A model generated the notes under the pieces. The model was not told the DNA's origin, made no database searches, and worked only from the letters and a program-made list of their open reading frames with translations. A stretch of DNA of 63,403 nucleotides from a virus (taxonomy: Duplodnaviria > Caudoviricetes), in IMG/VR virus record IMGVR_UViG_3300037882_001548, positions 1 through 63,403 of that record, one strand, 5' to 3'. Numbering within the stretch: the stretch's first letter is position 1; the number at the start of each line of letters is the position of its first letter. Below are positions 3 through 39,400 of this stretch, piece by piece. The position numbers and the translations under genes are program-made.

Positions 3-149
3 ATAGGCACTCGATCGCCCACAGTGGAGCAAGCTTACCTTATTGAATTGCATACTCATGGTATGGTTAAGCCTTACGACTTTATTTCACTAGAAAAGAA
101 AAAGGAATTAAATGAAAGAGCTAAGGCACTATCAAGTTCAAGCAATTAA
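3..149 (+). CDS. C-terminal end of a Cro/YdaS-like HTH protein (partial, foreign segment)
   Basis: Frame 3 reads IGTRSPTVEQAYLIELHTHGMVKPYDF..., resembling the G-R-P...A..IE..T.G.V...D tail of Cro-like regulators. TAA at 147-149; overlaps the helicase start. Confidence 0.4.
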   Translation: MGTRSPTVEQAYLIELHTHGMVKPYDFISLEKKKELNERAKALSSSSN

Positions 150-510
150 GGACATAGATGAGCAGTTTAATAAAGGAAATAAAAGGGTTATTTTGCATCT
201 CCAAACTGGAGCAGGGAAAACTCTTATTTCTACTTATCTTTTAAGAAGATCTATTGAGGCTGGTTTAAGGTGTCTTTTTGTTGTTAGAAGAAGAGAGTTA
301 GTTCATCAAACTTCTAGAGTTTTCAATGAAGAGGGTTTAAGTCATGGAGTTATTATGGCAGGAGAGCCTAATAAACCTCACATGCTTCTTCAAATATGCT
401 CTATAGATACTTTGAGAAACAGACAGCTTCCAGAAGCTCAATTTATCGTTATAGATGAAGCTCATGACTCTAATTCCGCAGCCTACAGAAATTTAATGAG
501 TCATTATGAT
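112..510 (+). CDS. N-terminal half of an SF2 (DEAH) helicase, truncated at a junction
   Basis: Q motif LRHYQ, Walker A LQTGAGKT, motif Ia VRRRELVHQ and motif II IDEAH are present. Motif III and the second RecA domain are missing. AAGGA SD-like sequence upstream; Arg codons only AGA/AGG. The end coordinate is approximate. Confidence 0.75.
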
Positions 511-1002
511 ATCACTTCTAAAAAACAAATAGCTAAAACAAATACTTATGCCTATCGTATAAATAATTTAGATAGAAAATTATTAAAAGATAAAACAATA
601 GATTCTTCATATATTATAAATTCAAAAGAAAAAAGAAGAAGTTTTTTAGCTGGATTAATTGATTCAGATGGTTATTTAAGTATTAATAAAAATAAAACAT
701 CACAATATTATGAAATAACTTGTTATAAAAAATTAACAGACAAAATAATAGATATTTGTAAATCGTTAGGGTATCGTATAGGGTTTAAGTCTTATGCTAC
801 ATATGATAGAATTACAATCAAAGGTAATGACTTGCATTTAATACCAACAAAAATAATAAAAAAGAAAGCGTTGCTTATGGATTCAATTGAATATAATTTA
901 TCGCCTATATCTGAATGTAAAGAAATAGGCATATCTCAATATATTGGTATTCAATTAAGTACGCCTCTTTTTTTATTAGACGATTATTCAATTGTACATA
1001 AT
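511..1002 (+). mobile_element. C-terminal part of an intein with LAGLIDADG homing endonuclease, inserted in TerL
   Basis: LAGLIDSDG at 646-672. C-terminal splice motif ...FLLDDYSIVHN ends at 1002 and is followed by Cys (TGC 1003-1005) as the +1 nucleophile. The N-terminal splicing block is absent. Confidence 0.85.
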
Positions 1003-2568
1003 TGCGGGATGTTCTCCAACTTAATCGAATCAAAGAACGCTATGGACGAAAATACAAAGCATGGTTCTACTCAAAAGTTCGGAACAATTATAATGGTGGG
1101 CACAGGGGGAGATATGAGTAGTAATGGCGGTACATACGATTCTCATAGAATGTTTTATGATCCTGATACATATGAAATATTGGCATTTCAAGATGAGTGA
1201 GAAAAACGTGGACGCATAGCTTACTTTATGCCCGCTTATTACGGTTTAAATCATCATAGAGATAAAGAAGGTCGTATTAACATTGTTGCAGCTACGGAAG
1301 AATTAAACCGTGAGCGTGAAATAAAACGCAAGTCTAAGTCAGGTAGACAGGCATTAGATAACTTAATTCAATATCACCCACTTGTACCAAGTGAGATATT
1401 CTTATCTCGTGAAGGTAATATATTTCCTGTATTTGAATTAAAAGAACGACTTAATAAAGTAGAGCAGCTTAATGCACAAGCATTACTCGAAAAGAAAGTA
1501 ACCTTGTCATTTGATAGCAGTCAACCAAGTGGAATTAACTATAAAATTGATATATCCAATAAATTAACAGCTGTAAATGATTATCCTTGAAAATCATCCA
1601 GTGATAAAGAAGGTGCTGTCGTTATTTATGATTTCCCAGAAACAAATGAATTGGGTAAAACACCCGAAGGTTTATACATAGTATGTCATGACCCTTATAG
1701 AATTGATAGCGCAGAAGGTGAATCTTTATCGGCTACTATTGTTATAAAGACAAAGAAGTATTTCAGACAATATGGACATGATGAAATAGTTGCTGTGTAT
1801 TATGGTAGACCCAGTCAAGGTAGAGAAGTGGTGAATGAAAATTTAATGAAACTTGGTATGTTCTATAATGCTAAAGTTCATTTTGAAAACAACGTAGGTA
1901 ACGTAAAAGAATATTTTGAGAAAATGAAAAAGCTATCTATGTTGGCTAAATCACCTACGACAATATTAAGTAAAAAAGCATCTTTTGATCAAGGAGAACA
2001 AACCAATAGAGGTATATCTATTAGTAATCAGCATATTAAAGAAGAAGCGCTATCTTATGTAAGAGACTGATTACTCGAAGAACGCGGTATATATGAAGAG
2101 CGTTCTGTGATAGAATACAAAGACAAATTTAATAATACTAAACGTAAAGTTAAAGTTGTACAAAAAGATTTATCAGGTGAAGAGATAAATCAAGAAAGTG
2201 AAGATTTTCAAACACGTAAAGTATTGCGTAACTTAGACTTAATTGTCGATAAAAAATTATTAGGTGAACTCATAGCCTATAACATGAAAGGTAACTTTGA
2301 TGCTGTATCAGCACTTTGTATAGGTATTGCTGGTATGGAAGATACGTACAATAAACATACTTTATTATTAGGTGAAGAAACACAAACATCAAATGAATTA
2401 GATTTTTTAATCTATAATAAAGCACAATTTGGGCAAGATTTATATGTACTACGAAAAACAGAAGAGATAAACAATCGCATGCTCAATGAAATAAACCAAC
2501 AAAACGGTAATGGCAACTACATTGATACTGAATCATTAGAATACCAATTTTCAAAATTAAATATATAA
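1003..2568 (+). CDS. terL: terminase large subunit (C-extein; N-terminal part missing), code 4
   Basis: CGMF just after the Walker B position, GTGGDM coupling motif, nuclease motifs CHDPY, FENN, DWLLEER and GNFDAVSA. Three in-frame TGA (1198, 1588, 2068) join four ORF fragments; TAA at 2566-2568. Confidence 0.9.
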
Positions 2569-11141: not shown

Positions 11142-12305
11142 ATGCAAAGAAAAATATATTTACCAGGTAACATCAATACCACACAGGCTACTACTACATT
11201 TAATGATGTAGTCGGTATACCCCCTAATGGCAATATTGATTTAGATCGCTGGATTCAATTTCAATTAGACAACGGTTATATTCTTGCTGGTGGATCAGGT
11301 TCTTTTACAACTGTTTCTATGACGATAGGTGCTACAACATATCCTATAGGGACGCCAGTGCAAACGATATTAACAGCTTTAAATACAGTATCTTCACCTA
11401 CTACAAGTACTGTATTAACAACAGCAGCTATTACAGTAGGTGCTACTGTATTTGCTATAGGAAGTACAACACAGTCTATATTAGCTGCATTGGCTAATAC
11501 AATGAATAAGACAACAACTGCTATGACTATAGGTAGTACAACTTACCCTATAGGTACAACAGTACAGACTATTTTAGACGCTCTCCAAGCAGACAAATGA
11601 AATAATACAGGTAATGCAGGAACTGTACAAGCGACTAATTTTATAGGTACTACTGATACGGTAGGGTTATCTATAAGAACCAATAATCTTATTAGACAAA
11701 CAATTTTAGCAAATGGTGATACTGGTTTTAATACTATAACACCTAATAATAAAGTTGAAATAGATAATGTTACACCCAATACATCAGGTTTAAGATTGAC
11801 ACGTTTAACATCGGCATCACCTACTTCAACAGGTGGAGCAATAGGTGTCGATGCTAACGGAGATGTTGTTAGAATTGCAGCAGCTACTTCTGGCGGACCA
11901 TTAAGATTGCAATCTGGTGTAGCTGACATTAAATATTTTGCTTTAACAGGAACACCTGTTGTTACTTTTAATAATACTGCAGGTGTAGGTACAATTGCTG
12001 TAACTGGTGGAACTATTGAATTAGATAGAGTACAACTAACTTTAACAAATACTGATTTAAATTCAAATGCTTATACGCTTGTAGCACCGACTACTCAATC
12101 AGGTACATTTGTTCAATACCCGCATGTAGAAAAATGGGATAGGCAATTAGATGGTTTACCAACAGGCGGTTTTGAACACATTAATGATAAAGATAGTAAT
12201 CCTCAAATACAAGTTGACGCAGCTACACCAGGAACAAGTATTACAGTGAAAGTAATCAATATTAATAATATGAATACAAACTGTGCTTTAGTGTATAAAT
12301 TTTAA
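11142..12305 (+). CDS. fibre-like virion protein (387 aa, code 4)
   Basis: TGA at 11598 read as W gives WNNTGNAGTVQATNFIGTTD, a motif typical of Bacteroidota fibre-like proteins. Also SGLRLTRL; Thr/Gly-rich. Confidence 0.7.
11319..11585 (+). repeat. three ~21-aa repeats within the fibre-like protein
   Basis: MTIGATTYPIGTPVQTILTAL / ITVGATVFAIGSTTQSILAAL / MTIGSTTYPIGTTVQTILDAL. Confidence 0.85.
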
Positions 12306-12335: not shown

Positions 12336-15300
12336 ATGTTAAAAAAATTAATTAATTTATTACAAATTACATTATTGCTGTTTGTAGCAAATTATACGCA
12401 GGCACAAAGTAATTTAACAGTTGCTTTAAAATATCAAGTATTTGGTACACCTACTATCAGCGGTAATAATTATACGATTAATGGTACAGTAAATGATGTC
12501 AATGGTGTTTGAAATGCAACCAATGTAGCTATAGGAGACTCTGTATTTTATTTGAATACAGGCATCATATATCCTATGGTTGTAACAGCTATTAATTCAG
12601 CTTCTGGTTCTGTATTAAACGTAACGGTTCAATCAGTACCACCTCTTGTATCTACATCAGGTACAGGTAATGTAGGCGGTCAATTGGCTATATCTCGACC
12701 TACTACGAATGATGGTTGTTCAGTTCCCAGTGATTTGAATGAACCACTGAAATGAGCTATGGAAAATAGAAATCGTCAATGGCGTACTAAAACAGGTCCT
12801 CCAGAAATCACAAGCGGTACAACAGAGCCTAATTTAACGATAACTACTGCCGCTAAAATTGGAGATAAATATATACAAACAAGCGATTCAATCACTTGGG
12901 TTAAAACAGGTGCTACTACTTGGGCAGTAGAAACAGGTATAATCAATAGAACAACAACACCTGTTTTTCAAGGTATTCTTGCTGTTCAAACAATTGGAGG
13001 TATTACATATATTCGTAAAAATTTAGGGCTTCGTTATCCAACAATGAATAATAATGTATTTTATTGGAATGATGCTGCCAATGCTTATGAATGTAATAAT
13101 TTTATTAGTGCTGTTGACCCATTGTTTTATAAGGTTAATGGTGCTGTAGGAGTTCAAGATACCTTGTTAGTAAGAAGTTATACAGTATCTAATACATTTC
13201 CTGTTGTAATAAAAGATTTTAATTTAAATACAGCAGTATGAGAAGAGCGTAGTACAAAAGCTGAAACAAGTATATCAGCTACGATTCCTACATCATCAGC
13301 AGGTATGAAAGACGGAGATTTCATCAGAACAAAAAATGCAACAGATAGTGTATTATGGCAAGTAGTTGGTACAAATAAATTTAAAGCTATTGGAGTTTTT
13401 TACAAATCCACAGAACCTGTTAATACAGCTACTAATGATTATACAAGTGCGATTTGGCAAAATCCAAGCATTTCAGTTGTTGCTGGAGAAACAGTTGATT
13501 TTACATACCAAAATAATAGGTGGGTAAATGATAACCTAAATCTTGAAAATTACGGAGCAAAAAAAGACGCTAATTCAAGAGCGGCATTACTGCAAAATAT
13601 TTCACTTTCAAAAGTAATAAATGTTAAATCGGGTAATTATCTGATTGAATCAGAGGTTTTAATTAATAAAGACAGCTTACATTTTAAAGGCGAACAAGGA
13701 GCAACGTTTAAATTTAATACTTCATCACAGCAACGAATGTTTCGCTTAGAGTCAAAAGGGGTAGTTTTTGAAAATATCATTTTTGACGGCAACGATAAAG
13801 AGGTGCTTTATAGCCTTGTATATGCTCATAATAATGCTACCGTAAAATTTGTAAATTGTAAATGGATCAATGTGAAAGGTGTTCACGCAAACGGATTCAA
13901 TAATACAACTAATGTTCAATATGGTTTCCAAATGTCAACAGAAGGGGCGGAGGTTGATATTGAGAACTCAGAATTTAAAAATATTACTAATACTAATTTA
14001 GTCAATATTGAAGGGGTTGGTTTTTGTGGGGGTATTGCTACAATATTTGATAACTTTATAGAACCTGCGGTTCAGTTAAAATCGGCGGTTTTGAATGTGT
14101 CTAACACCAAGTTTTCAAACATTCAAACAATTATGAACACGGGATTATCAGTAGCGGATAATATAAAATATGATGATGCAGACGGCATCAGATTTTATAG
14201 TGAAAAATTATTTACCGTAAATTCTTTTATCAGCGATTGCACGTTTGAAAATATTTCAAAGCGAGCTGTTAAAAATAGTGATGTTAAAGGAGTAACTATA
14301 TCTAATATAAAAATATCACATTATAATATGCCTTATCCAATGGTGAATCCTGTCAAAATTGCATCACGGATGACTATTAATAACTTAGATTTTAAGTCAG
14401 ACCAGCCTTGTGAAATATTAATACAAATACACACTTCCTCTGATATTGCGGTTACAAACGTTACAGCAAACAAAGTTAAATATGGAATTGTTTTTACGCC
14501 TTTGACGGCTAATGACACAATAAGAAATATTTATTTTGATAATATTAAGATGGATACTGTTTTGATAAACGGCACTATTAGTTCTACGGTACATGCAAGA
14601 GTTGACAATATAAAATTTAATGCTTTGTTTATAAATGGTATTGGGGCCACAACAATCGGATTTGCTCCTCCCGTTCAGTCTGATAATAAAGAATTTTATA
14701 CTTTAACAAATTCTTTCTTTAAAAATAGTGCTGTTAAAATTTCTGGAAATGGCAATGTTGATAATATAAATATATTAATCGACAATCCTTTATTCAAGCC
14801 TACTTTAAACGGTGTATTGGAAAGTAATACTGTTTCTGTAAGTGATGTAAAAATGAAAGTTGAAAGTATAGACTTGACTTTTAAAACCGCAAGTAATTTT
14901 CTAATGTATTTCTACGGAACTCAAACAACTGTCAAAGACATAACGCTTACGGTTGCTGATGCCGTTGCCGTTTCAAGCTATGAGGCAGCCTTAAACGGCA
15001 GTTACTCAAGCTATGAAAATATAACTTATAACGGTATAGGGAAAATGATGTTTGGCTGGTTTTCAAACGCGAATCCAATTAAGAAAACAATATTTACAAA
15101 TGTTGTAAGACGAACTATAAATCAACTCCCTACAATAAACTTTTTAGAGGCTTATCTGATAGACAGTTGTAGAATGAACAGTATTATTGATTATTCGCCT
15201 AAAAACAACGGGTATGTTATTTACTTGGAAAATAACGCTAATAATAATAGATTAAACAAAGTAGTCGGCTTAATGTCAAGCCCAATTAATAATGCTGGTA

Positions 15301-15590
15301 CTAATAATATTGATGAAGGTTCAATATTAATTTCAGCACTTCCAAAAGGGGTAGCTACAACTATTTTAGGTACAACTCAAACAGTTACTTTAGATATAGC
15401 TCCAGCAATAGGAACAGATGCGAGTAGATTTGAAGTGGTTTTAGAAGTGGCAGGTAATAGACAAGTACAGTTTCCTATTTCATTAGATGCTACAACAGGT
15501 TATACGCTTAGTTTTAGTGGTACAACAGTAACAGTTGTTTTTGTTAATTCAGTAGCAGCAAGTGGTAAAATATATGTAAATCAACATTAA
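12336..15590 (+). CDS. tailspike-like protein with right-handed beta-helix (pectate-lyase-like) domain and N-terminal signal peptide (1084 aa, code 4)
   Basis: ATG 12336, MLKKLINLLQITLLLFVANYTQA|Q. Three in-frame TGA join the fragments. From ~13530 LENYGAKKD, FENIIFDGN, DADGIRF and N/I/V ladders typical of beta-helices. Confidence 0.75.
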
Positions 15591-15603
15591 AAATAATTAA
15601 AAA

Positions 15604-15638
15604 TTATAAGGCGTGACTTAAAATCTCACGCCTTATAA
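15604..15638. promoter_or_regulatory. perfect 13-bp stem-loop between two fibre genes
   Basis: TTATAAGGCGTGA / CTTAAAATC / TCACGCCTTATAA. A U-rich tract lies on the - strand side rather than the + side. Confidence 0.7.
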
Positions 15639-15656
15639 ACTATAAAAAATACAACT

Positions 15657-17363
15657 ATGAAAAAAATATTAATATTGTGTTTTACCCTGTTTTCGTTGGG
15701 GTTGAATGCTCAGTTTATTGTTCAGTCTCCTACGGTTACAAGTCTAACTTCGGGACGTGTTATCGCATTGCTTGACCTTGCATCTGTTACACATATCAAT
15801 ACAGACCCTGGCACAAAGATACCATTTACGGGTACTATCTACACAAACGGAATGACTACCAATGCGGGAAGCATTACGCCAAGTCAAACAGCTAAATATA
15901 GGGCTGATTGGTTGTGTGTGTCTCCAAGTACGGAATTTCTCGCAGATGGTATTTTTCATGTTGTGCAAAACGGTGTTAGTGTCGGTCAAGTTTCATACAA
16001 TATGAACGAGGCAAGTGCGGTAAATCAATGTGCTGGTTTTATAGATGTTGATTTAATAGCAGGGCAAGAAGTTAGCTTACATTATCGTACACGACATACG
16101 ACAACAGACGGCATCGGTTGGGATAGAGGTAGTTATTTTCAATTGACGCAATTACCTACTGCTGTTGCACCTGTTATTGATGCGGTGGCGGAGTATGGGG
16201 AAAATAATGGTATAACTGATAATCAAACTGTTACAACAACATTAGCTGATGTTGCTGGTTCTTCTTTCACATTACCAAGTGCAGGTGTATGGGAAGTTAA
16301 GTATGTAGTTGAAACAAATGTTACAAGTACCAATATGACAGTTGGTTTATACACATTGAGTAACATTCTTTTAGCAAATTCACAATCGCTTAGTGGAGGA
16401 CAAAGTACCGTCAGGGGTATTGCTTCTCAAATTTCATTTATAACCACAACAGGCTCAGAGGTTTATAAACTTCGTGCTTCTGTAAATACAGGGACAGCGA
16501 CTATCATAAACGGTAATATAGCTGGGTTACAATCTAATTCAAAAATTACTTATCAGAAAATTGCAGGTGGTTTACCTTCAACTGGTCAAACAGTAGATAA
16601 ACTTCACGTAAGGCAGAACACAACACAAGGAGCACCTACTGTTAATACTATTATTAATCTTGAAGGTATTGTAAGTGGGAACATTCCTTTTGCAAACAAT
16701 ACAGTAACTTTAGAAGCTGGTAAAACTTATTTGTTGGAAGGAACTGGGGCTATAATGGCAGGGGGTTCTTCTGCTTATGGTACAAGATTTTTTAATGTTA
16801 CGACTGGACAATTTTTTGGAGAGAGTAGTTATGCTATTTCACCAAATAACGGTAACACAGCTACGTTTGTTAGTAGAACAGCTGTTGCTGAAATTACACC
16901 AACTGTAACAACACAAGTGCAATTAAGAGTTGACCTTTTAGCTGGTGCTGCTGGAACTATTGGCGGTTCTAATTTAGTAAATACTGGCAACGGTGCTGGG
17001 TCTAATCAAGACCCTAATGGTGCATCATGGGTTAGAGTTACACAACTCGGTTCAACCTCTAACACAGTAGGAACTCTACCAGCAGTAGACCAATCATCAG
17101 CAGGATACTTTGACATAGGAAATATGCGGATGCAATGGGGTTCAACAGGAAGTGTAGGTTCTGGTTCTTTTATTACACTTCCTGCACCATTTGCAAATTC
17201 TAATTACGCAATAACTTTAACACCTTTTGCAAGCGGTACAAGAATAGCAAGTGTTTTTTCTACAACGGCTACTACTTTTCAAGTAACTGGGTGGGAAGTA
17301 AATTCACCTGTTGGTGGTATTGCAGTAAATGCAAAATGGATTGCAATCGGTCAACGTCCATAA
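15657..17363 (+). CDS. fibre/receptor-binding-like protein with signal peptide, several C1q-like beta-sandwiches and a C-terminal tail-fibre tip-like domain
   Basis: MKKILILCFTLFSLGLNA|Q. Repeated units (ITPSQTAKY, FTLPSAGVW, VTLEAGKTY). C-terminal GYFDIGNMRMQWG...ITLPAPF...WIAIG typical of phage fibre tips. Confidence 0.7.
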   Translation: MKKILILCFTLFSLGLNAQFIVQSPTVTSLTSGRVIALLDLASVTHINTDPGTKIPFTGTIYTNGMTTNAGSITPSQTAKYRADWLCVSPSTEFLADGIFHVVQNGVSVGQVSYNMNEASAVNQCAGFIDVDLIAGQEVSLHYRTRHTTTDGIGWDRGSYFQLTQLPTAVAPVIDAVAEYGENNGITDNQTVTTTLADVAGSSFTLPSAGVWEVKYVVETNVTSTNMTVGLYTLSNILLANSQSLSGGQSTVRGIASQISFITTTGSEVYKLRASVNTGTATIINGNIAGLQSNSKITYQKIAGGLPSTGQTVDKLHVRQNTTQGAPTVNTIINLEGIVSGNIPFANNTVTLEAGKTYLLEGTGAIMAGGSSAYGTRFFNVTTGQFFGESSYAISPNNGNTATFVSRTAVAEITPTVTTQVQLRVDLLAGAAGTIGGSNLVNTGNGAGSNQDPNGASWVRVTQLGSTSNTVGTLPAVDQSSAGYFDIGNMRMQWGSTGSVGSGSFITLPAPFANSNYAITLTPFASGTRIASVFSTTATTFQVTGWEVNSPVGGIAVNAKWIAIGQRP

Positions 17364-17395
17364 TCAATGAAAAAGATAGTATTAAAAATAAAAAT

Positions 17396-18985
17396 ATGAA
17401 AAAAATAATTTTATTATTGACAATCTTAATACCGATATTAGGTTTTGGGCAATTTGTAAATAATAGTCCTCAATTAACACAAGCGCAAATAGATAGTTTT
17501 TCTCGATTGGATTCGAGTGGAAACTTAAAAGGTGGTGCTATTAATAATTGGGAATTACCTTCTATTATTAATCCCCTTAGTAATCAAAAAACATTGACTG
17601 TGGCTATAAGTAAAGGTTCGATGACAGAGGCGGCACTTACTGATTCTGTTGTACTTTTTGACCCTATCACAAAATCTTATAAGCGAATGTTGGGTTCAGA
17701 TTTAAGAGGAACTCAATCAACTGTAACAGGAAATGAAATAGTTTTTAACAATTGGGATAAAAATTCGGCGGATGATTTTAACGGAGTTTATGGAAATTTA
17801 ACAGGTATTCCTTTAAGTTTTACTCCCTCAGTACACAATCATACTATTGCAGATGTAACAAATTTACAAAATAGTATTGATGCTAAGTTGAATGTTACTG
17901 ATACAAGTTTATACAATTCAAAATCTTTAACACTTGCACAATTAGCAACCAAACAACCACTTGGAACATACGCAAGCGGTACGGGTTCAGCAACAGGTAT
18001 TAATACAGGTGACAATGCCGCTAATACGACTTATGCAAATGACTATCGAGCAGCAAACTTTATAGCGGGTACAAATTATCTTGCACCTAATGGCAATGGT
18101 AGTGCTTTGACAGGATTAAGTCAAAGTCAAATTGCTAACTTATCTACTGATTTAGCAAGTAAGCAAGCAACTTTAACAGGTTCTGAAACTATTTTCAATG
18201 GTTGGGATAAAGACGCATCTAATGATTTTAGCGGTGCGTTTAGTGCATTAACGGGAATTCCAACAACTTTTGCACCCGCTACACACACGCATACAATAAG
18301 CGATGTAACAGGATTACAAAGCGCAATAGATGCGAAACAACCTAATTTAGTTAGTGCAACTAATATAAAAACCATTAACGGTAATAGTATTTTAGGTGGT
18401 GGCGATTTGGCAATAAGCGGAATATCGCAAACCGTTTTAAACGATACATCAATAGCGATTAGAAATAATTTGAATTTAAAAATAAGTGCGTCAGATACAT
18501 CTACAAATTATAAGGTGATGACTCGTGCTAAAACAGATGCTCTATACGTGCCTACTCGTTCTTTTGTAGCTGGAGGAAGTGTAAATTCAACAACTACACA
18601 AGCAGCTATGTTACAATCTGATTTTGCAGTTATAGCGGGAGGGCGTTATCGTTTCAAATATCAAATTAGATATTCCTCAGCAGCAACAACAACAGGTGCA
18701 GCATTCGCTTTGTTCGGTAATGCGGATGTAATATCGGCTTCAATCATTCAAACAAATGCTAACAGCACCACATCTTTAACACAAAGTTTTTCTGGGACTA
18801 TTGCAGCAGCAACTCCTTTTTTAACATCAACATCTTCAAAGTTAACAAACAATGTTGCTATTATTGAAGGTGAAATTGTGGCAAATGCGAACGGGTTTTT
18901 TCAATTGTATTTTGCAAGCGAAGTGGCTGCATCGGCTATTACAATATTAGCTACATCAAGAAAAGAATTTTTAAGAATAGAATAA
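17396..18985 (+). CDS. tail-fibre-like protein with signal peptide and HxH fibre repeats (529 aa)
   Basis: True start is ATG 17396, MKKIILLLTILIPILGFG|Q (the ORF-track start at 17291 overlaps the previous gene). HNHTIADVTNLQ and HTHTISDVTGLQ repeats; NIKTINGNSILGGG fibre motif. Confidence 0.75.
   Translation: MKKIILLLTILIPILGFGQFVNNSPQLTQAQIDSFSRLDSSGNLKGGAINNWELPSIINPLSNQKTLTVAISKGSMTEAALTDSVVLFDPITKSYKRMLGSDLRGTQSTVTGNEIVFNNWDKNSADDFNGVYGNLTGIPLSFTPSVHNHTIADVTNLQNSIDAKLNVTDTSLYNSKSLTLAQLATKQPLGTYASGTGSATGINTGDNAANTTYANDYRAANFIAGTNYLAPNGNGSALTGLSQSQIANLSTDLASKQATLTGSETIFNGWDKDASNDFSGAFSALTGIPTTFAPATHTHTISDVTGLQSAIDAKQPNLVSATNIKTINGNSILGGGDLAISGISQTVLNDTSIAIRNNLNLKISASDTSTNYKVMTRAKTDALYVPTRSFVAGGSVNSTTTQAAMLQSDFAVIAGGRYRFKYQIRYSSAATTTGAAFALFGNADVISASIIQTNANSTTSLTQSFSGTIAAATPFLTSTSSKLTNNVAIIEGEIVANANGFFQLYFASEVAASAITILATSRKEFLRIE
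17711..18337 (+). repeat. two ~58-aa internal repeats in the fibre gene
   Basis: TVTGNEIVFNNWDKNSADDFNGVYGNLTGIP...HNHTIADVTNLQNSIDAK and TLTGSETIFNGWDKDASNDFSGAFSALTGIP...HTHTISDVTGLQSAIDAK. Confidence 0.85.
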
Positions 18986-19015: not shown

Positions 19016-19324
19016 ATGAATGATTTAACTTTCAAAACACTATTCTTAGGCTTTCTGGGGGCACTTGGTACAATTGTAGCTGCTTATATAGGTAAGTTAT
19101 TATTAACGCCTAACGAACGAATAAAACAGCTTAATGAGATTATAATACAGCATACTGAACTGATTCATGATTTAACAAATCAAGTGAGAGAAGTCATTAC
19201 TGAAAATTCTATTTTAAAGAAAAGAATTTCTGAATTAGAAGATGAGTGTAGATTGCTGAGAGATGAAAACAATATATTAAAGCTTAAAATAAATTCTAAT
19301 TATGATAATAACAAAGACAAATAA
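19016..19324 (+). CDS. small membrane protein with coiled coil (holin-like candidate)
   Basis: One N-terminal hydrophobic helix (LFLGFLGALGTIVAAYIG) followed by a heptad coiled coil; lies between fibres and endolysin. Confidence 0.5.
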   Translation: MNDLTFKTLFLGFLGALGTIVAAYIGKLLLTPNERIKQLNEIIIQHTELIHDLTNQVREVITENSILKKRISELEDECRLLRDENNILKLKINSNYDNNKDK

Positions 19325-19718
19325 TTACACATACATTATAGATTTACCACCTGCTATAAAAGCCTTATATACATCAACATCTGTTCAGTTAAATAAGGTA
19401 GAGTTATCTCAGACTCTACCTTATACTGTAACTTTACCTACAGGCATAAGCGAAGTTAAAATTACATTAAAAAGTGCAAATGGTTCGTATGAAGAAAAAG
19501 CATGTTTTTTATATGATGATAATTTACAATGTAATTTAGCGACACACTTGGCAGCTCTGGATAAAGAAAAATTAACTAATACGCAACTACCTTATTTATA
19601 TTATATGTTAAAAGAAGGTACTACAGATATAAACGATTGTGGATGTTATTGTGATTACTTATTGAAAATATATGAAGACATAAATAAACAAATAAACAAT
19701 TCAGATTGTAACTGCTAA
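19302..19718 (+). CDS. Cys-rich hypothetical (probable virion) protein
   Basis: 138-aa ORF with DCGCYC and terminal DCNC. Confidence 0.55.
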   Translation: MIITKTNNYTYIIDLPPAIKALYTSTSVQLNKVELSQTLPYTVTLPTGISEVKITLKSANGSYEEKACFLYDDNLQCNLATHLAALDKEKLTNTQLPYLYYMLKEGTTDINDCGCYCDYLLKIYEDINKQINNSDCNC

Positions 19719-19719
19719 C

Positions 19720-20523
19720 ATGAAAATATCAACAGCTTTAGATAAATTAAAAACATATTACGAAAAACGTAAAATAGGTATTGATTGTAAAGAATCAAAA
19801 GATAATACTAAAGAGCTGGTATTACAAAATTGATTGAATACAATTGACTGCGAAATAGAAGAATGTATAGAATGTAAATTTAATAAAGTAATTGATGTAA
19901 ACTGTACACCTACAATTAAACCATGTTTATTTACATTACCCAATATAACAATATCTCATAATTCATTTACCAACAAAGTGCATGTTAAATTCAATATTAT
20001 TACAACACTATCAGAAATACCGAAAGATGATAAAATAGAATTATTATTTATAGTAAATGGTTCTATTGTAAGCACTGATATTGTCAATCTAAGCGTAGAT
20101 AAATATTATTCTATGTCAGCTACTGATTACATAAATAAAACTATCCAAATAGCTATTAAATCTAATAATTGTTATAGTATTTCTACTCCTACTAAATTAG
20201 GTATAAAAACAATTCAATTAGGTACTTTCAATAATTGTTTTTTATATACAAACGAAGCTTTAATAACAGCACCTTTAATATTAACAAATGTAAATTTAAA
20301 TCAAATATTTATAAGTAATATAAACTTATTTGTAGACGGTATTCAAAATACAAATTATACAGTAGTTATAAATTCTTTAGGTACGTTAGTTATTACTTAT
20401 CCAAGTTTATCAGCTAATCAAGTAATAACAGGTTTCATAGAGTTTCAGCAATACGGAGATACTGTACCATTTTCACATATAGATTTTACAACCAATCAAA
20501 CAGATAATTTATACTGTTCTTAA
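19720..20523 (+). CDS. hypothetical protein with Cys-rich linker and Ig-like C-terminus (267 aa, code 4)
   Basis: ATG 19720 directly after the previous TAA; TGA at 19831 is in frame with ORF 19834-20523. Confidence 0.6.
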
Positions 20524-20546: not shown

Positions 20547-21557
20547 ATGCTCACTTATTTCATATTAACATTGATAATTCTGGTAATATTGACATTACTT
20601 TTTTATTTCATTATATTGAACCCTGTTCCTACTATTGCAACTAAGCATCCAGAAAGCGACACAATAAACAAACAAAATAACAAATTCATTGATACGGTAA
20701 GTAATACAGAAGCTAATGTAATACGTCAAAATATGAAAACAGGTAAGCAAACTAAATACTGCTTAGCTTTCGGTTTGAATAAAATAAACCCTGATGTATA
20801 TAATGGAAGTAATGGATTATTATATGGTGCTGTAAATGATGCTAAACATATAACTGATTACTTAAAGAAAGAAAAAGAATTTGATGTCGTTAAGTTATTT
20901 ACAAATGAAGAAGCTTCAATACAGTCTTTTATAAATGCTTGAAAGTCAATTACAAATAACTTAAAAAAAGATGACGTGTTTGTATTATATATGTCCAGAC
21001 ATGGCATCATGCTTCCAAATAATACAATGGATGATGATAAAGAAAAATCAGGTAAAGATCAAGCAGCCGTAATGTATGATGGTTGTATATTAGATGATTG
21101 TATCGGTAGATTAATTCAATCTTTACCAGAAATTACATTTATATACATCAATGATTCTTGTCATTCTGAAACACAATATAAACTATTACCTGATTTAATT
21201 GATGGTAAATTAACAATCAGTAAATCATTAAGTAAAGATTATGTACCGAGTAAAAATAATATACTTGATATAGTTCAATTAGAATCTTTGTTTACAAAAC
21301 AAGATTATAAACAAAGATGTACTGTTATATCACTTGCATCATCTTTAGATACACAACCATCACTGGATGTTCAATTGAATGGTGTAGCACAAGGATTATT
21401 TACTGGCACATTACTTAAAATACTTAGAGACAATCCTACTATAAGAGTTAAAGATATTCAAGCTCAACTCAGAAAACAAATAGGTTATCAACAAACACCT
21501 GTTGTTCAAATAGAAGGCTTAAATACTAAAAAAGTAAGTTCTTTAAAGCTATTTTAA
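20547..21557 (+). CDS. membrane-anchored metacaspase/caspase-like protease (peptidase C14; 336 aa, code 4)
   Basis: N-terminal TM helix. C14 motifs LYGAVNDA, YMSRHG (His at 21000), NDSCHS (Cys at 21159), GLFT and QTP. The two ORFs are joined by TGA at 20940. Confidence 0.85.
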
Positions 21558-21610: not shown

Positions 21611-22081
21611 ATGGGAAAATTACTATTAAGTGTATTACCACTTAAAACAATATTAAACTTTATCTTTAATACAGAACAATTTCAAAATGCCATCATATAT
21701 TTATTTATGAAACCTTTTGAAAAAGTAAAAGATAAAAATCCAGCTTTATATAAAGCGTTAAATGATTATGTTATAGCATTCGCTAAAATACCATCTATTC
21801 AAACAGACGATAATCCAGACAACGTTTCACAATATATTGATTTATTTAAATTATCACAAGTAGAATCATTAAATAAAAATTTACAAGATTCTAACTCTAT
21901 GTTAACAAAAGCGATGAATGCGACGGTAGAAACTAAAAAAGGATTAATGTTAGACTTAGGTATGATTACACCAGCTAAACAAGAAACATCAACTGCTGTC
22001 AATATTGAAAGCTTAAAAAAATATAGTGCGCCAATTAAATCAGTTACACCATTAACAGGTGGTTCTAAACGTAAAAAATAA
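21611..22081 (+). CDS. hypothetical protein, translationally coupled to the endolysin
   Basis: 156-aa ORF with amphipathic N-terminus and basic C-terminus; TAATG overlap with the endolysin start. Confidence 0.6.
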   Translation: MGKLLLSVLPLKTILNFIFNTEQFQNAIIYLFMKPFEKVKDKNPALYKALNDYVIAFAKIPSIQTDDNPDNVSQYIDLFKLSQVESLNKNLQDSNSMLTKAMNATVETKKGLMLDLGMITPAKQETSTAVNIESLKKYSAPIKSVTPLTGGSKRKK

Positions 22082-22713
22082 TGGATATTAATTACACAAA
22101 AAAAGTAATATCATCAGCCAAAGCATTATGTCGATTAAAACCTAAATCATTAGACAAGCAATTTAAAGCTGACGAATTTCATACCAAAGGATTAGAGGAT
22201 ATTTTTGCAACAGCATTATCTTATGTAGGTCAACAAGAAATACCAGGTAATCAAGGATTTAAGAATCCTAAGTTTGAAGACGAAATGACAAATGTAGGTT
22301 GGTTAAAAGGAGAAGCATGGTGTGCTACATTTGCTAAGTTGGTATTTAAAAAAGCTTATGCTGATAAACCTACAACACAATTAGAACTTGAAAGATTGTT
22401 TTCTAAATCAGCTACTCAAACATATTCTAATTTTGATAAGTCAGATTGGAAAACACAAAATCCAGATGGCACACCTATTAAAAAACCAGTTAAAGGTGCG
22501 TTAGCTGTATGGCGACACGGAGATTCTTGGGCAGGTCATATCGGTATTGTTATTGAAGTTAATTTAAAACAAGGTTATTTTAAAACAATAGAGGGTAATA
22601 CAAATGCGTTTGGTTCAAGAGAAGGTATTCAAGTGGCTGTTAAAGAACGAAAGATGTCACAGCCTTATTCAGATAAAGGATTAAATTTAATTGGTTTTGT
22701 TTATCCTAAATAA
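22081..22713 (+). CDS. CHAP-domain endolysin
   Basis: AWCATF (catalytic Cys), GHIGIV (His) and TIEGNT. Confidence 0.88.
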   Translation: MDINYTKKVISSAKALCRLKPKSLDKQFKADEFHTKGLEDIFATALSYVGQQEIPGNQGFKNPKFEDEMTNVGWLKGEAWCATFAKLVFKKAYADKPTTQLELERLFSKSATQTYSNFDKSDWKTQNPDGTPIKKPVKGALAVWRHGDSWAGHIGIVIEVNLKQGYFKTIEGNTNAFGSREGIQVAVKERKMSQPYSDKGLNLIGFVYPK

Positions 22714-22839: not shown

Positions 22840-23526
22840 ATGACTAATCTTAGAAAACATACGGATGCACTTAAAATAATCATAGGTCGGTCCAGACCAT
22901 CAGATGATTTTCCTTATTCATCATCTTTTTTATCACATCTTATATACAGTATAGGTAGTAAAGTAATGAAAGATAAAATGGATAAAGAAGGTATGTTATC
23001 AGAATTTAATTATACTTCTTTTTGTATAGACTTAATTGATTCAACATTTGCACAGTGTGCGTGTGTAGAACAAAAAGGATGTACAGTTAAGCGTAGTTCT
23101 ATTAAATTACCCAATGTATTATCACCACAATCATCAAGTGTTAAAGTGTTAAATTTTAATGGCGAGACAATAGATTCCATTAATCCTGATTTATATAAAT
23201 ATTCTAAATACAGTGAAGATAAATATACAGGTTGATTAATACATGATGATTATTTATTTATCATTGGTGATACTGATATAGAACATGTTATATTTAAAGC
23301 TATCATAACTGACTTAACAGCTCTTGAATCACTCAATACATGTAATAATGAGGGTAATAATAAAGGTATCTGTATGATGCTTGAAAACGGCTTTAAAATA
23401 GACGATGATTTAATTGAAGAAGTATACAAAAGAGTTTTACGCTTATTGGGTTATAATTTCAATACTAATTTTGCGAAAGATACCAAATCAGATAATTATG
23501 ATAACACGACCCATTCCAATATATAA
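22840..23526 (+). CDS. tail ring protein (228 aa, code 4)
   Basis: SDD motif near the N-terminus and C-x-C...C...RS...LP pattern as in crAss-like ring proteins. TGA at 23233 read through to TAA at 23524-23526. Confidence 0.65.
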
Positions 23527-33453: not shown

Positions 33454-36400
33454 ATGGAACCAAAGCTCGAATATACACCTATCAATGGTTTTGCTACACC
33501 ACCTACGGGGGGAGATAAACTAAGGTATACACCAATCACTCAACCATTGAGTGACTCTTATGATTCTCGATTAATAAAAGTTAAACACGATTCTAAATAT
33601 GACGCTGGCTATAACCCACTCACTATGGGTAGTCAGGAAGACTATCGGTCATATAAGCAAGGTAGTATGAATAAATGATTGGCTGCTGTACCTCGTACAT
33701 TAAGCTCTATCGCACTTAAAACAATGGGGGGTATTCATGACTTTGGTGCTGCCGCAGCAACGCTCGCATCTAATGTAGGTTCTGTATTCACAGGTGGAGA
33801 TGGATTAGAATTAGCCAACTTATTGGATAACCCTTTCCGCAATGGTTTAGACCAAATGGAAGAAAGCATGAAAGAAGCTATTCCCATTTATAAATCAGAT
33901 GCTTATACCAATGGTAATTTCTGAGGTCGTATGAAAACAGCTGATTTTTGAGCCAGTGATGCGATGGATGGTTTAGCTTTTATGGCTTCGTCTATTGTAG
34001 GTAGTAGAGGTGTGGGTAATTTAGTGCAAGCAAGTGGTCTTAGCTCTAAATTAGCTGCAAAGAGTGCTGCAAAAATAGCCGCAGGTGAAAGTGTGGGTAT
34101 GTACAATCAATTGAATTTATTGGCAGCTAATTCTGGATTAGAGCGTGGTTTAATGACAACATATTCTACACTATCAGAATCAGCAACAGAAGCTTACGGT
34201 GTACAAAAAGAGATTAAGGAAGAGCTTAATCAAAAGAGGGAGTTGGGTAGACAAGGTATAGCTGAATATAAAGCATTTGCTGATATGACAGACGAACAAA
34301 TTAAAAGTAAAGCAGCTAATGCAGCCGCTAATACTTTTGGTGCTAACATGATGATTTTACCTTTTTCTGGATGAATGGAATCAGGATGGGCGCTGCGCAA
34401 AACGGCTGATAAAGCAAACGACTTTAGACGAGGTATTCATGCCGCAGAGCGTGGTGTAGAAGGAGCTGCTGTAGACCAATTGGGTAAAAAAAGTATGCGT
34501 AATACAGCCAAAGCATTTTTAGAAGGTTTTGCTAAAGAAGGTGCTTGGGAAGAAAATATACAAGAATCAGTATCTAAATACTATAAGCAGTATGCAGAAG
34601 CAGAACTTGGTAAGGATGATAATATAGATAGCATAGGAGAAAACTACGCACGCGGATTAAAAGGTTTTGCACAAAATATGTTCGCTATGACAGGCTTAGT
34701 GGAAGGTACTAAAAAAGGTACAACAGAAGATGACGCATCAGCTGCTATTATGCTTGGTGGTGTTATCGGAGGACCAGCTAATATGATTTCATCTATAACT
34801 GAACGTGCACGTAAAGACACTGCTTACAACGCACAAAAACAAGGTTGGTGAAAGAATTTTGATCAAGCATCTAAATATGCTAACGCACGACTTATTGCTA
34901 ATCACACTAATCCTTTGATTAAACAGCAATATGAAGTAGACGAAGAATATCAAGATGGTGAAGAAACTAAGACACGTAAGGTAACAAAAGAAGCGTGGGT
35001 ACCAAGTCCCGATAGTGAAGCTAAGATGGATCCTCGTAAAGCTGACGTTATGCGTACTCGCTCTATGGGTTTAATGCTTGATGAATCACATGACCAAGTA
35101 GCATCACTTGAAAACAATCGCTATTTGAGTACACTCAATGATGACCACGCACTCTATCAATTTGCATATGATTTAGAAAATAGTAGTATGATGGCTCAGA
35201 TGGATGAGACAGACAGAGAACTCATCATAGAAGATATGATGAACAATCACAATGATAAGAATACGGATACAACATCACTTAATCAACTCAAAGGAGATGC
35301 TAAGCAGCGTATCGCTAAGTTCAGAGAAATGGTTAAACAAGCCAATATGGAAGTTAAGAATACAGAGACTGAAACTGACATGATGGATGCTGATGAGAAA
35401 AATCTATTTAATACTTATGCAGATACGTTAAAGAAAGTATTAGGTTTAGAAAAACTTAAACGTCATTCATTTAATCGGATGCGTCAGCGTACAGATATAT
35501 CAGATAAAGCACGTGAGCAGTTAGATAAAGCCATCGAAGACTCTCAATTGTTTGAAGACAGTTTTAAGATGATTAACAATCCGACTGATTCAGGCATGAC
35601 ACGATTTGAAGAGTGGAAAAACTTAACAGCCATTGCTGAACCAGGAGGTAATGCTTTTGAGACTCAAATGAATGATGAAGTGTTAAAGCAGTCTGATAAA
35701 TACCGATTAGTCAATGGTAGTCAACCAAGTATGCGTGAATCTATATTCTATGACTTAGTTGCAGCTAAGGATTTAGCCAATGAATTAGAAGATAAATTGG
35801 CGGATATAGATAAGGTTGACCCTGCGGATGTAACTGAATTAAGCAATCAATTAACGATGGTTAAAAATATGCTTAATGACAATACTGGTATTAAAATGCA
35901 CGCTTTGAATAAAGATGTATTAGATAAAGTCAATCGCTTACAAGATGTTGTCAATAAATCAAAAGCGACAGTACAAAAACAAATTAATGACAACAATGAA
36001 ACATTGGCTTTAATTGATGATTATGATGGATTAGTACAAAGTGATAATCCTGCAAGATTTGATATAACAGATGATTTTTTAGCGCAGTTAGAATCTATGG
36101 GTGTTGATACATCTACAGCTGTTGATGACAATTACGCTTTATCAGAAGAAGCGCTAAATACATTAAGAGAAGAATTACAACGTCAAAATGAATGATACCA
36201 GTCACAATATATTAATGAATTAGAAAGTTTTGACTTTGCAAATATAAGTGATTATGCTAAGCAGTCAGTTGCTTACAATGAGGCTATTCGTGAAGCTGCT
36301 AAAAAAGGCATCAAGGGATTAAATAACTTTGCATTTTTAGAATTTTTTAAGAATAGTACAAAAGATGTCCAAGATTTATTGCGTAAGTTTCTAAGCGAAG

Positions 36401-39400
36401 CCTATGATAACATAGGTGAATTAAAAGAGGATTATGAAGTTGATATTGACATTGAAGTATTAAAAAATTTAAAAGAACAAATTGAAATAATTCAAGCTTT
36501 TGTCGATAAAGAAAAAGCGACACCCAATGATAATCATTATAGTAAAGATACAATAGACGGTATTGAAAATGGTTTCAGAACATATGACGGTAAAACCAAC
36601 TATCGTAATTACGATGGTCGTCAAATGGGTACTGCTGAAATGTTACTACATATAAATCAATTAATTACACTATACAATGCGCAGTCAGAAAAAAGACTTA
36701 AAGATATTCGCGATTATCAATTAGCTCAGGAAAATAGTAGTGCTGACAGCATTATGGAATCTGATAAAATAGATAAAACTATTCGAGATATAGCTGTAGA
36801 TGGTTTAAATGATGATGTTGTAAATGCCTATGAAGAGCATATAATAATTAATACTGTTGATCCTGACTTATCTGAAACAACAATAGAATCTAAAAAGAAT
36901 ACATTTCCTTCGTTTATGGCGCTACTTAATAGATTAGGTGTACTGAAACCTAAGAATATATCAAGTGTGCTTAAAGAGAAGAAAAAGAATATCATTGGTA
37001 CACTATTAAGTAATGCTGATAAAAAGATAAAAGGTTATCTTAAAATATCTACGGACAAAAAAACAGCTGTAGATATGGTGTTGTCATATTTCACGCAGTC
37101 ATCTAATTATGGGCTTGTTGATTTTGGTGGTGACTTGTCTAATAAATTAGTGAATGGTACATTACAAAATGAATTTGAAAGACATAAGGATATTACAACA
37201 TTACTTAAAACAGCTAAGTCAAGTAAATCAGACAAAGACTTTATAAATAAAGAATCTAAACAAGAGTTCATTAAGTTCTTGACAGCTATGTTACAACTTG
37301 AAAACTTAGAGATGTTAGAACGTATTGCGACTAATCCACTTGTTATAAATAAAGTCATAGAACAGTTTCAGAAACAAGAACCAGGTAAGTATCCAACATA
37401 CCAACAAATGTTGGCTATATTAGATATGATATTGACGGTTAAAGAGATTAAAACTAAATCTTTGTATACACCCTTCATAAATATCGCAGGCGTAGCTGGA
37501 GCTGGAAAAACATCAATAGTTGTAAGAACTGTTATAAACTATTTAGAAGCGGAAGGTACGGTAGATAAGAAGACATTGTTTGTAACAGGTCATACAGTAA
37601 CATCAACCAAGAATGTTCAAAAAGTATTAACAGATACTGAAACAGTTACGCAGAATTTGAACGCTTTATTAGAAATGTCCGATGAAGAATTTGGTAAATT
37701 GTCAGCTGTTGTCATAGATGAATCATTTGCTATTCCCATTGAATATTTCAATGCGCTGGAAACAAAGATGAAAAAAGCGAAGATAGATAAACTACCTGTT
37801 TTACTATTAGGTGACCCCTCGCAAACAACAAATAATCCAGGTACAGCTTTTCAAAATAACATTGACCGCACTAAAAGCATTAAGGCACTCACACTTAATT
37901 ACAGAGCTATTATTCCAAGTATCCGAAGCTTTGCTAAGTTATTTGATAATTCTAACTCACAGGTCAAAGAAACGATGACTGTTGCTAATGTAGAAGAATC
38001 TGACTTGATATCAGATACATCTATTATACCTAAGGGTAGTATGGTCGGTAAAGATAGTATAGTGGCGATTGTAGCTGCACAAAAAGCAATTAGACCTGAT
38101 ACAACCAGAGCTATTATTGTAGCCTCAGAAGCAGCTAAATCACCTTATTTAGCATTAGCAGATAAGCATACATTAATTTTAACACATGTAGAAGCACAGG
38201 GTGAATCTTATGATGAGGTGTATTTTGACTTTAATGAGAAACAACGTACATCCGCATTGATGTTTGAAGGTGGTAAAATTGTTATTCGTGATGTTGCCAT
38301 CAGTGAATTGGCTTTTACGGTGCAAGGTAAAGCAAATCGCTATTATAATTCGATTGCCTATACAGCACTCACACGTGCACGTAAATTTTCGTATATGCAA
38401 GACAATACGTTGACGAATAATCATATGAAAGATGATAATGTGAATAGTTCTGTCAATAATTTAACGGATGAAATAGCGCACAATACAACAGTATTTAAAG
38501 AGTTTATGACAGACTTAAATACATCAGCTGAAATGTTAGATGTAAATTATAAGAAGTCATCTGTAAAGGTCAGTAATCAATCTACACAGGCAGCAGCTAC
38601 CGAAAAAGATGATGCTAAAACACCTACTAATCATGCGCCTGATATACCTATAACAGATGATGAAAATGTATCGGAAGATGAGTCACTTGAAAAAGATAAT
38701 GAAGATGCTGTAACTGAATCAGAAGCACCAACACTTGAATTAGCAGAAGACATAGCTAAGGAAGATGATGAAGAAAATATAACCAATAAAAAATCAGAAG
38801 CTAAAACAATAGATAAAAAAAAGAAAGCTAATAAAAAAGGAAAGACTCCGTTATTATCACAGCTTAAAGATAAAATAATAGAATTGTTTTATCCAGCAGA
38901 TATTCATTTTACAGGTGATTTAACAGCACAGGAAATACAGAACTTACTGGATAAAAATCCTAATTATATACCGACAACTGTTCAAGACGATGAAGGTAAT
39001 AATTACATGCCTGTAGGTCAAGGTATTCGTGCTATTTATGTCACAGGTGGTTCAAGCTTTATGATTAGACTTATGGCACCTGTTAAAGATATGTCAGGTC
39101 AATTAGTAACCAATAAATATATTGAAGTAGGTGTATTATCAGAAAAAGATATCTTTATGGAAGACGGTGTAACGCCTCGTCATAAAGATTTATTTGAAAT
39201 TTATATACAAGCTGATACTGAATTTAAAGGAAAGAAAACAGCTATATTCCCAGGTGGTTACGATAAGACAAAAGTACAGACCATTCAACCTAAGCATTTA
39301 ATTGGTCCTGCGTTTAATGTAAAAGAGAAGTCTTCTATGAAGTTTACTTATCTGAATCAAGATGGTAGAACCAAAGAAGAAGAAGCTATTAGCAATCCTA

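Follow-up and report, generated by a model that had tools for sequence, protein, structure and literature searches.

Candidate Sec-exported receptor-binding proteins in the fibre slot of a TGA-recoded, Crassvirales-like phage

Tail fibres decide which bacteria a phage infects, and in the textbook account tailed phages are built wholly inside the cytoplasm. Some other phage proteins are exported to the envelope of the infected cell, such as Llp of T5, Cor of phi80 and T1, and Sp of T4, which mask receptors or block superinfection. In the cultured Crassvirales phage phi14:2, the 'pectate lyase' g086 as well as g085 and g081 are virion proteins by tandem mass spectrometry (MS/MS) according to the record notes, and all three are leaderless. 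In Bacteroidetes, the substrates of signal peptidase I (SPI) follow a Q-rule that is specific to them, with Gln at position +1, and glutaminyl cyclase faces the periplasm, as given in the available part of Bochtler 2018 (PMC5837995); pyroglutamate is reported to stabilise extracytoplasmic proteins in the accessible portion of PMC10653852. The prophages of Porphyromonas gingivalis carry five Q-rule signal-peptide genes, described in the available text of Matrishin 2023 (PMC10367356) as being of unknown function and read there as modifiers of the host surface. A tailspike fold is also found in WceF of Pantoea stewartii, a cellular, trimeric beta-helix glycanase exported by twin-arginine translocation (Tat) that acts on the bacterium's own polysaccharide, as far as the accessible part of PMC7949094 goes. 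Here, the whole IMG/VR virus record IMGVR_UViG_3300037882_001548 (linear, 63,403 bases, estimated completeness of 64%; hereafter the window) was analysed, in which three consecutive genes of receptor-binding type (hereafter the trio) each begin with a predicted signal peptide of the general secretory (Sec) pathway followed by Gln.

Under translation table 4 and on the plus strand, the trio comprised a leader-bearing spike of 1084 amino acids (aa; gene 1, 12336-15590), with in-frame TGA codons at 12510-12512, 12753-12755 and 13239-13241, and two leader-bearing fibres lacking TGA codons, of 568 aa (gene 2, 15657-17363) and, counted from its ATG, of 529 aa (gene 3, 17396-18985). The leaders spanned 23 codons in gene 1 (12336-12404) and 18 codons in both gene 2 (15657-15710) and gene 3 (17396-17449). 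Their n-regions (MLKK, MKK and MKK, respectively) held two to three basic residues and were followed by uncharged cores of 12-14 residues, rich in Leu, Ile and Phe, whose best 10 residues had a mean hydropathy of 2.6-3.1. Cleavage was predicted after TQA, LNA and GFG, with a small residue at -1 and Gln at +1 in all three, so that the leaders described in the first-pass annotation were recovered feature by feature on the table-4 translations. The structural model of gene 1 began with a helix (residues 2-20), lost confidence at 22-25 and was folded into a domain from residue 30 on. Sequence anatomy and model alike mark these leaders as predicted cleavable signal peptides, unlike membrane anchors.

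The window was further screened with a crude leader rule of our own, which asked for an n-region of net positive charge, small residues at -1 and -3, and a window of 10 uncharged residues averaging at least 1.9 on the Kyte-Doolittle hydropathy scale. Of the 120 code-4 open reading frames (ORFs) of at least 50 aa, 14 were flagged, namely the trio and 11 short antisense or overlapping ORFs; apart from the trio, Gln stood at the candidate +1 position only in an antisense ORF of 54 aa. By this rule, the trio are the only real genes of the window predicted to bear such an N-terminus. Each ATG of the trio lay 30-66 nucleotides past the previous stop codon, behind A-rich sequence without a Shine-Dalgarno motif, as for the other genes of the window. 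The next in-frame Met was found at residue 81 (gene 1), 66 (gene 2) or 76 (gene 3), within the folded parts, and therefore no ATG-started leaderless isoform was apparent. As the first-pass annotation had pointed out, two of the three starts were missed by the table-11 ORF list, which splits gene 1 at its TGA codons (12552-12755, 12759-13241 and 13305-15590) and begins gene 3 at an upstream GTG (17291), overlapping gene 2.

The leaders recurred among relatives. The first 150-200 residues of gene 1 were matched by 23 homologues starting at their own residue 1, and a leader directly followed by Gln was present in 20 of them (18 by the rule, two by eye with Met at -3), the remaining three being 5'-truncated and beginning within the leader or within the domain. 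For gene 3, leaders were found in 38 of the 119 relatives listed, 34 of them with Gln by the rule. The first-pass annotation had classed the leaders as Bacteroidota-type SPI leaders and had envisaged that close orthologues might lack them; the opposite was found, as Gln24 of gene 1 was invariant in an alignment of 21 proteins, Gln19 of gene 3 was conserved in at least 90% of 27 aligned leader-bearing relatives, and the related phage contigs L092, L093, L094 and L102 were all leader-bearing. Judged from this conservation, the leaders of the trio are not due to chance, and no other single fact points to export as strongly as the invariant Gln behind a small residue.

Other kinds of N-terminus and of destination were considered. 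No lipobox was present in the trio, as +1 was Gln in all three and no Cys lay near the junction. Type IX secretion cargo was rejected, since a type A or B sorting domain was absent from all three proteins (Pfam, E up to 0.1; NCBIfam, E up to 1). With neither a lipobox nor a type IX sorting domain, the mature proteins would therefore be expected to stay in the periplasm until lysis. A signal-anchor-release (SAR) domain, in which a weakly hydrophobic span at the N-terminus abounds in Gly, Ala and Ser, was ruled out by the composition and hydropathy of the cores. O-glycosylation was also dropped as a motive for export: D-[ST]-[AILVMT], the Bacteroidota O-glycosylation motif, was not consistently enriched (7 occurrences against 3.6 expected, 0 against 1.6, and 1 against 2.6 for genes 1 to 3, respectively).

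The phage itself was placed by its structural genes. The window contained a large terminase (PHROG, 8.4e-66), a portal (phrog_6547, 2.6e-109), a major head protein (phrog_11589, 4e-70) and a virion protein of 1505 aa (phrog_15100, 1.9e-104), and the crAss-type portal, major capsid, tail ring protein and giant ORFs (5586 and 1743 aa) were all present. The portal search matched 138 phage records, none of which reached 60% identity, with the best at about 27-28% to named members, which were crAss-like phages of Bacteroides, Flavobacterium, Cellulophaga and Azobacteroides; the capsid protein gave the same lineage picture, with FpV4 as the nearest (31%). These matches identify the window as a distant, TGA-recoded, Crassvirales-like phage. 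Because its portal and capsid relatives are crAss-like phages of Bacteroides, Flavobacterium and Cellulophaga, its host is very probably a member of the Bacteroidota.

Stop-codon recoding is published for crAss-like phages (PMC7886860; bioRxiv 10.1101/2021.08.26.457843, in the parts available), and several lines of sequence evidence support the reading of TGA as Trp in this phage. Once TGA was read through, the stop-to-stop ORFs of at least 100 aa rose in total from 19,731 to 28,601 aa, and the longest from 1158 to 5591 aa. Trp was encoded by TGA and TGG at 71:72 across 24 genes, and W59 and W140 of gene 1, two of its three TGA codons, aligned with Trp in homologues. The window held no tRNA genes. 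Codon use was uneven among genes: the Trp codons of the trio were 3 TGA against 19 TGG (genes 2 and 3 having 0 TGA against 7 and 3 TGG, respectively), compared with 68 TGA against 53 TGG in the other 21 genes counted, and TGG was also the only Trp codon in the capsid gene, a 452-aa gene and the endolysin. The avoidance of TGA in the fibre genes could reflect recent acquisition from standard-code sources, or a need for translation without the suppressor.

The bodies behind the leaders were of receptor-binding types, as the first-pass annotation had held. In gene 1, an N-module (residues 24-152; 12405-12791, plus strand) consisted of a beta domain and a helix (136-152), with a predicted local distance difference test (pLDDT) score of about 95 for the domain at residues 30-152. 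It was followed by an unmodelled stretch (residues 153-424) and by a beta-rich body with strands throughout (residues 425-965; 13608-15230, plus strand; pLDDT above 90). Although a word-indexed search yielded no relatives of gene 1, a full HMMER scan yielded 93, which were used as the alignment for the model. Among eight scanned relatives of the gene 1 body, PF12708 (pectate-lyase-like) passed the cut-off in two and lay below it in three more, and the family of these relatives together with the strand pattern suggests that the body is beta-helical and pectate-lyase-like. Gene 2 ended in a Gp53-like fibre-tip domain (residues 492-565; 17130-17351, plus strand; PF21882, E = 3.1e-6, 28.1 bits against a cut-off of 24.9). 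Gene 3 matched the phage tail repeat PTR (PF12789, 32.7 bits against a cut-off of 27), five tail PHROGs and the solved tail collar fibre gp4 (PDB 9d93, E = 3.8e-6), and possessed HxH motifs (HNH, HTH) and KTING. By their matches, the bodies of the trio are a predicted glycanase-like spike and two fibres.

A single chain of events may account for these genes, and we favour it tentatively, somewhat short of an even chance for the whole: the trio would be receptor-binding proteins that are exported and cleaved, kept in the periplasm and joined to virions at lysis. They would be made as precursors, each with a cleavable Sec signal peptide, which the host Sec machinery would carry over the inner membrane; SPI would cut immediately before the conserved Gln, and the periplasmic glutaminyl cyclase of the host would turn this N-terminal Gln into pyroglutamate. 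The mature proteins would fold and accumulate in the periplasm, away from the cytoplasm in which heads and tails are put together, until holin lesions at lysis joined both compartments, whereupon the spike would dock on the tail through its N-module, as would at least some of the fibres. The export and cleavage of the trio are in themselves very likely, because the invariant Gln follows a small residue and a structural helix would not need a Gln. That the exported proteins end on virions is a step to which we lean from gene order and domain architecture.

Three features point to a place on the virion: a slot shared with fibres verified by mass spectrometry, a constant N-module with swapped C-terminal ends, and recurrence at the ends of tail modules. 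Concerning the N-module, its homologues ranged from 146 to 1577 aa, with leader and N-module constant and the C-terminal parts varied; the latter included, besides the pectate-lyase-like body of gene 1, a weak GDSL-esterase match with an SO2946-like domain (P0204), fibre repeats (P0164) and the tip domain of the leaderless fibre-like protein encoded upstream of the trio (P0216). A constant N-terminal end with swapped C-terminal ends is what attachment to a constant partner would predict.

Concerning position, the clade sample consisted of the window and the contigs L092, L093, L094 and L102. The first three, IMG/VR contigs found through the N-module, were syntenic with the window: their terminase, portal, capsid and small structural genes were followed by a gene related to the leaderless one at 11142-12305, then by one leader-bearing gene and by a small membrane and coiled-coil protein. 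This leader-bearing gene (940, 1577 or 1543 aa in L092, L093 and L094, respectively) was the only large spike-like gene of the block. The fifth clade member, L102, was found through the leaderless neighbour and held four consecutive leader-bearing ORFs in the fibre slot. A single-protein scan through another gene gave no further clade relatives, and the scan with the upstream fibre returned the same three contigs and L102. In addition, 50,697 phage records were searched by tblastn with the trio, P0067 and the upstream protein of 452 aa, and one weak match to gene 2 was all that was returned.

By their gene content, four phage contigs unrelated to the window clade have the same apparent leader-on-fibre pattern. 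The myovirus L020 had three leader genes in a row after its sheath, tape measure and baseplate hub genes; in L023, the tail module closed with a leader gene of 1720 aa, placed after a tape measure and a virion protein; L124 had leader genes of 2350 and 109 aa after tape-measure-type genes; and L005 had a portal closely followed by two leader genes matching tailspike and tail-fibre PHROGs. Across 136 viral loci, 780 ORFs were 250 aa or longer; the leader rule flagged 33 of these, and 13 of the flagged leaders had the Gln. Twelve of the 13 ORFs lay in contigs of 30-40% G+C (the other at 59%). In two motif scans, leaders were found in 5 of 70 and 9 of 61 fibre-motif ORFs, three of the nine being doubtful. 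Five contigs of 48-57% G+C (L112, L116, L117, L133 and L157) carried fibre-motif ORFs of 582-705 aa whose leaders ended in Ala-x-Ala followed by Ala or Val, without Gln, and leader-bearing fibre-like genes may thus occur beyond the phages of Bacteroidota. More generally, it is quite possible, if still tentative, that some Bacteroidota phages, among them this clade, at least a single myovirus and certain phages that have tape-measure genes, practise a two-compartment assembly, in which receptor-binding proteins would be routed through Sec, mature in the periplasm with pyroglutamate at the N-terminus and be fitted at lysis to particles that are complete in all else.

Several points weigh against assembly on the virion after export. 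Export parts the fibres from the cytoplasmic tails, and to our knowledge there is no precedent for the attachment of fibres after lysis. Phages do habitually export small exclusion proteins. The number of leader genes varied from one to four among relatives. The statement of the first-pass annotation that fibres are normally leaderless was borne out in the same slot of the three cultured Crassvirales compared (crAss001, FpV4 and phi14:2), unlike the trio: the leader rule flagged none of 31 proteins in the first 34 kb of FpV4, one of 25 scanned in crAss001 (gp27, a small lysis-type membrane protein) and one of 24 scanned in phi14:2 (g076, a small membrane protein). For gene 2, leaders were present in only 5 of 31 relatives; its closest relatives (54-60% identity) were ordinary leaderless fibres with 80-420 extra N-terminal residues, and its mature end aligned at residues 81-421 of full-length relatives, where the distal module begins, leaving no room for an attachment domain. 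As for the attachment role of the N-module, the model of its natural homologue P0196 (pLDDT 87.7) had no PDB match at E of 0.001 or less, and its matches in BFVD were two weak ones (E 1e-4 to 4e-4, template modelling score 0.57-0.58) to uncharacterised phage proteins. Finally, the conserved leaderless neighbour at 11142-12305 could be the real fibre of the particle.

Two candidate details of attachment were dropped. The leaderless upstream protein was considered as the dock of the N-module; because its C-terminal domain also ends the leader-bearing P0216, this domain has the look of a tip and not of a platform. An attachment motif common to the N-termini of gene 3 and of leaderless fibres, suggested by eye, was sought with jackhmmer (residues 19-135 against the stored N-termini), which returned four close relatives only.

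The alternative that survives best keeps export and cleavage and gives up the particle: the trio would act as free proteins in the periplasm, or as soluble ones once released at lysis, and the gene at 11142-12305 would be the true virion fibre. The spike would then cut or modify nascent capsule or O-antigen from the periplasm while the fibres bound receptor glycans or envelope components, the effect being a block of superinfection, less sticking of progeny to debris, or the stripping of neighbouring cells. We regard this as possible, though on the doubtful side. Attachment at lysis, decoys that mask receptors or exclude superinfection, and breakdown of capsule from within had all been put forward in the first-pass annotation, and each stays a candidate here. 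Action in the periplasm or outside the cell needs no new assembly route, and several of the points raised above fit it directly, namely the conserved leaderless fibre-like gene adjoining the trio, the one to four leader genes per relative, as for accessory genes, and gene 2, which consists of a leader and a distal fibre module without an N-terminal domain. The trio also adjoins lysis genes, and some relatives of the gene 1 body had Tat-like leaders (a sub-threshold TAT_signal match in P0159; P0163 and P0165 by eye). There are parallels in the sources available in part, with an exported enzyme of tailspike fold in WceF (PMC7949094) and prophage Q-rule genes read as host-surface modifiers in P. 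gingivalis (PMC10367356). However, a free enzyme has no obvious need for a constant N-module while its C-terminal domains swap, and non-enzymatic fibres in the periplasm would be unable to reach surface receptors. The genetic context also argues for the particle, as the trio lies in the slot of the MS-verified virion fibres of phi14:2, no large spike-like gene other than the leader-bearing one is present in the block of L092-L094, and the leader-bearing gene is the giant gene that ends the tail module in L023 and L124.

It is unlikely that the hydrophobic N-termini are unused for export, with assembly following the usual cytoplasmic route and the helix acting in the particle or at the membrane on entry, or with the true starts lying elsewhere. 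This would retain the canonical assembly route and would suit L005, whose leader genes lie closely behind the portal, where podoviruses keep essential tail parts; moreover, the signal-peptide call comes from one heuristic rule. It is the invariant Gln after a small residue, fitting SPI and glutaminyl cyclase and not a structural helix, that speaks most directly for the preferred reading, in which the leaders are cleaved on export. The cores of 12-14 residues are also short for a membrane span, and alternative starts are disfavoured by the stop codon or end of the previous gene 5' of each ATG and by the position of the next in-frame Met inside the folded parts.

Lastly, the trio might be captured cellular surface-protein genes carried as passengers that benefit the host or lysogen and have no role in the phage cycle, which is improbable: the gene 3 repeat motif does occur in giant leader-bearing proteins of bacterial genomes (Flavobacterium xinjiangense, 1901 and 1776 aa; a Lentimicrobiaceae metagenome-assembled genome; Paceibacteria; Elusimicrobia), and the TGG-only genes 2 and 3 in a genome at 71:72 would fit recent acquisition, but the gene 1 N-module was found in one of 401 genomes sampled from the phylum of F. 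xinjiangense against all five phage clade members, no integrase or lysogeny gene was noticed in the window, without a dedicated search, and position and domain types are those of fibres.

One region of the F. xinjiangense genome was inspected (L162; G001 contig 29, 31000-50999, partly masked). It held a leaderless fibre-like ORF of 1145 aa and, immediately behind it, the 1776-aa leader-plus-Gln ORF, whose start matched the gene 1 N-module (E = 8.8e-7).

Four genes around the trio were annotated on the plus strand. Just 5' of the trio, the leaderless fibre-like gene (11142-12305) encodes 387 aa with one TGA read as Trp, and its C-terminal domain is kept in the syntenic relatives. Directly 3' of the fibres, the gene for a small protein that combines a membrane helix at its N-terminus with a coiled coil (19016-19324) is probably a lysis gene; its homologues come after the leader gene in L092 and L094, and proteins built like it follow the fibres in crAss001 (gp27) and phi14:2 (g078). 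An endolysin with a CHAP domain (22081-22713; PF05257, E = 1.5e-9) matched endolysin PHROGs, and a crAss-type tail ring protein 2 (22840-23526; PF25702, E = 4.3e-17) marked the resumption of the tail module past the fibre and lysis block. Two Cys-rich proteins that matched no family (19302-20523; 138 aa with 7 Cys, and 267 aa with 9 Cys) are encoded after the membrane and coiled-coil gene and before a caspase-like gene, and the smaller was kept in L092 and L094. The caspase-like gene (20547-21557), between the fibres and the endolysin, encodes 336 aa, with a caspase domain (Peptidase_C14, E = 3.2e-15) in addition to a membrane helix at the N-terminus, an unusual content for a lysis block.

Other large genes of the clade showed features of their own. 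By its PHROG matches, the terminase ORF of the window (112-2568, 818 aa, three TGA) was composite: residues 2-132 matched DNA-helicase PHROGs, residues 298-664 the large terminase, and residues 145-224 another terminase family, with a LAGLIDADG-like motif, which looks like an intein or homing-endonuclease insertion inside the ATPase domain. The giant ORFs under table 4 (33454-50214, 5586 aa, 18 TGA; 50235-55466, 1743 aa, 14 TGA) were placed where the crAss-type virion RNA polymerase and cargo genes lie, and the 1743-aa protein had a single weak PHROG match. In L102 (2441-6078), the capsid match spanned the first 222 residues only and was followed by two 274-aa ORFs with DNA-binding-looking N-termini; the capsid gene may have been split by a mobile insertion.

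If these fibres are exported, either the last assembly step is carried out across compartments at lysis or free fibre-derived proteins in the envelope reshape the surface of the infected cell. The annotation of fibre genes in gut and marine Bacteroidota phages would change, as table-11 gene callers miss two of the three starts here; host-range engineering would have to choose between fibre expression with and without the leader, and virion proteomics should seek pyroglutamate N-termini. The leader-plus-Gln signature would also be an inexpensive means of linking phages without a cultured host to the Bacteroidota.

The first-pass annotation had proposed the trio as an undescribed system, and this stands in part. 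The literature search, which left subscription journals and supplements largely outside its reach, found no description of signal peptides on tail fibres or in Crassvirales. Two points qualify the proposal: Q-rule leader genes are already known in the P. gingivalis prophages (PMC10367356, available text), and most relatives of gene 2 are leaderless. These prophage genes are phage-encoded and use the host Q-rule like the trio, although the available text does not link them to fibres or to a fibre slot.

Among the other described systems, T5 Llp, phi80/T1 Cor and T4 Sp, which serve as the model for the reading as free proteins, are small, mostly lipoproteins and unrelated to fibres, whereas the proteins of the trio are of 529-1084 aa and have no lipobox Cys. 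WceF can be likened to gene 1 as an exported beta-helix of tailspike type, but it is chromosomal, uses Tat and not Sec, and lies outside any phage structural module. The Q-rule substrates of Bacteroidetes have the leader shape and the Gln at +1 seen in the trio; those known are cellular periplasmic, outer-membrane or secreted proteins, whereas the trio is phage-borne and of fibre type, with cleavage and cyclisation predicted from sequence. Finally, the closest counterparts in position are the fibres of the cultured Crassvirales. The window is collinear with phi14:2 and crAss001 in the order portal, capsid, small structural genes, fibres, membrane proteins and endolysin, ring protein, and giant tail protein, and within this collinear structural block crAss001 gp22-gp26, phi14:2 g081, g085 and g086, and the FpV4 fibres occupy the same slot as the trio. 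They share its kinds of body, including a spike of pectate-lyase type, and gene 1 sits at the place of g086.

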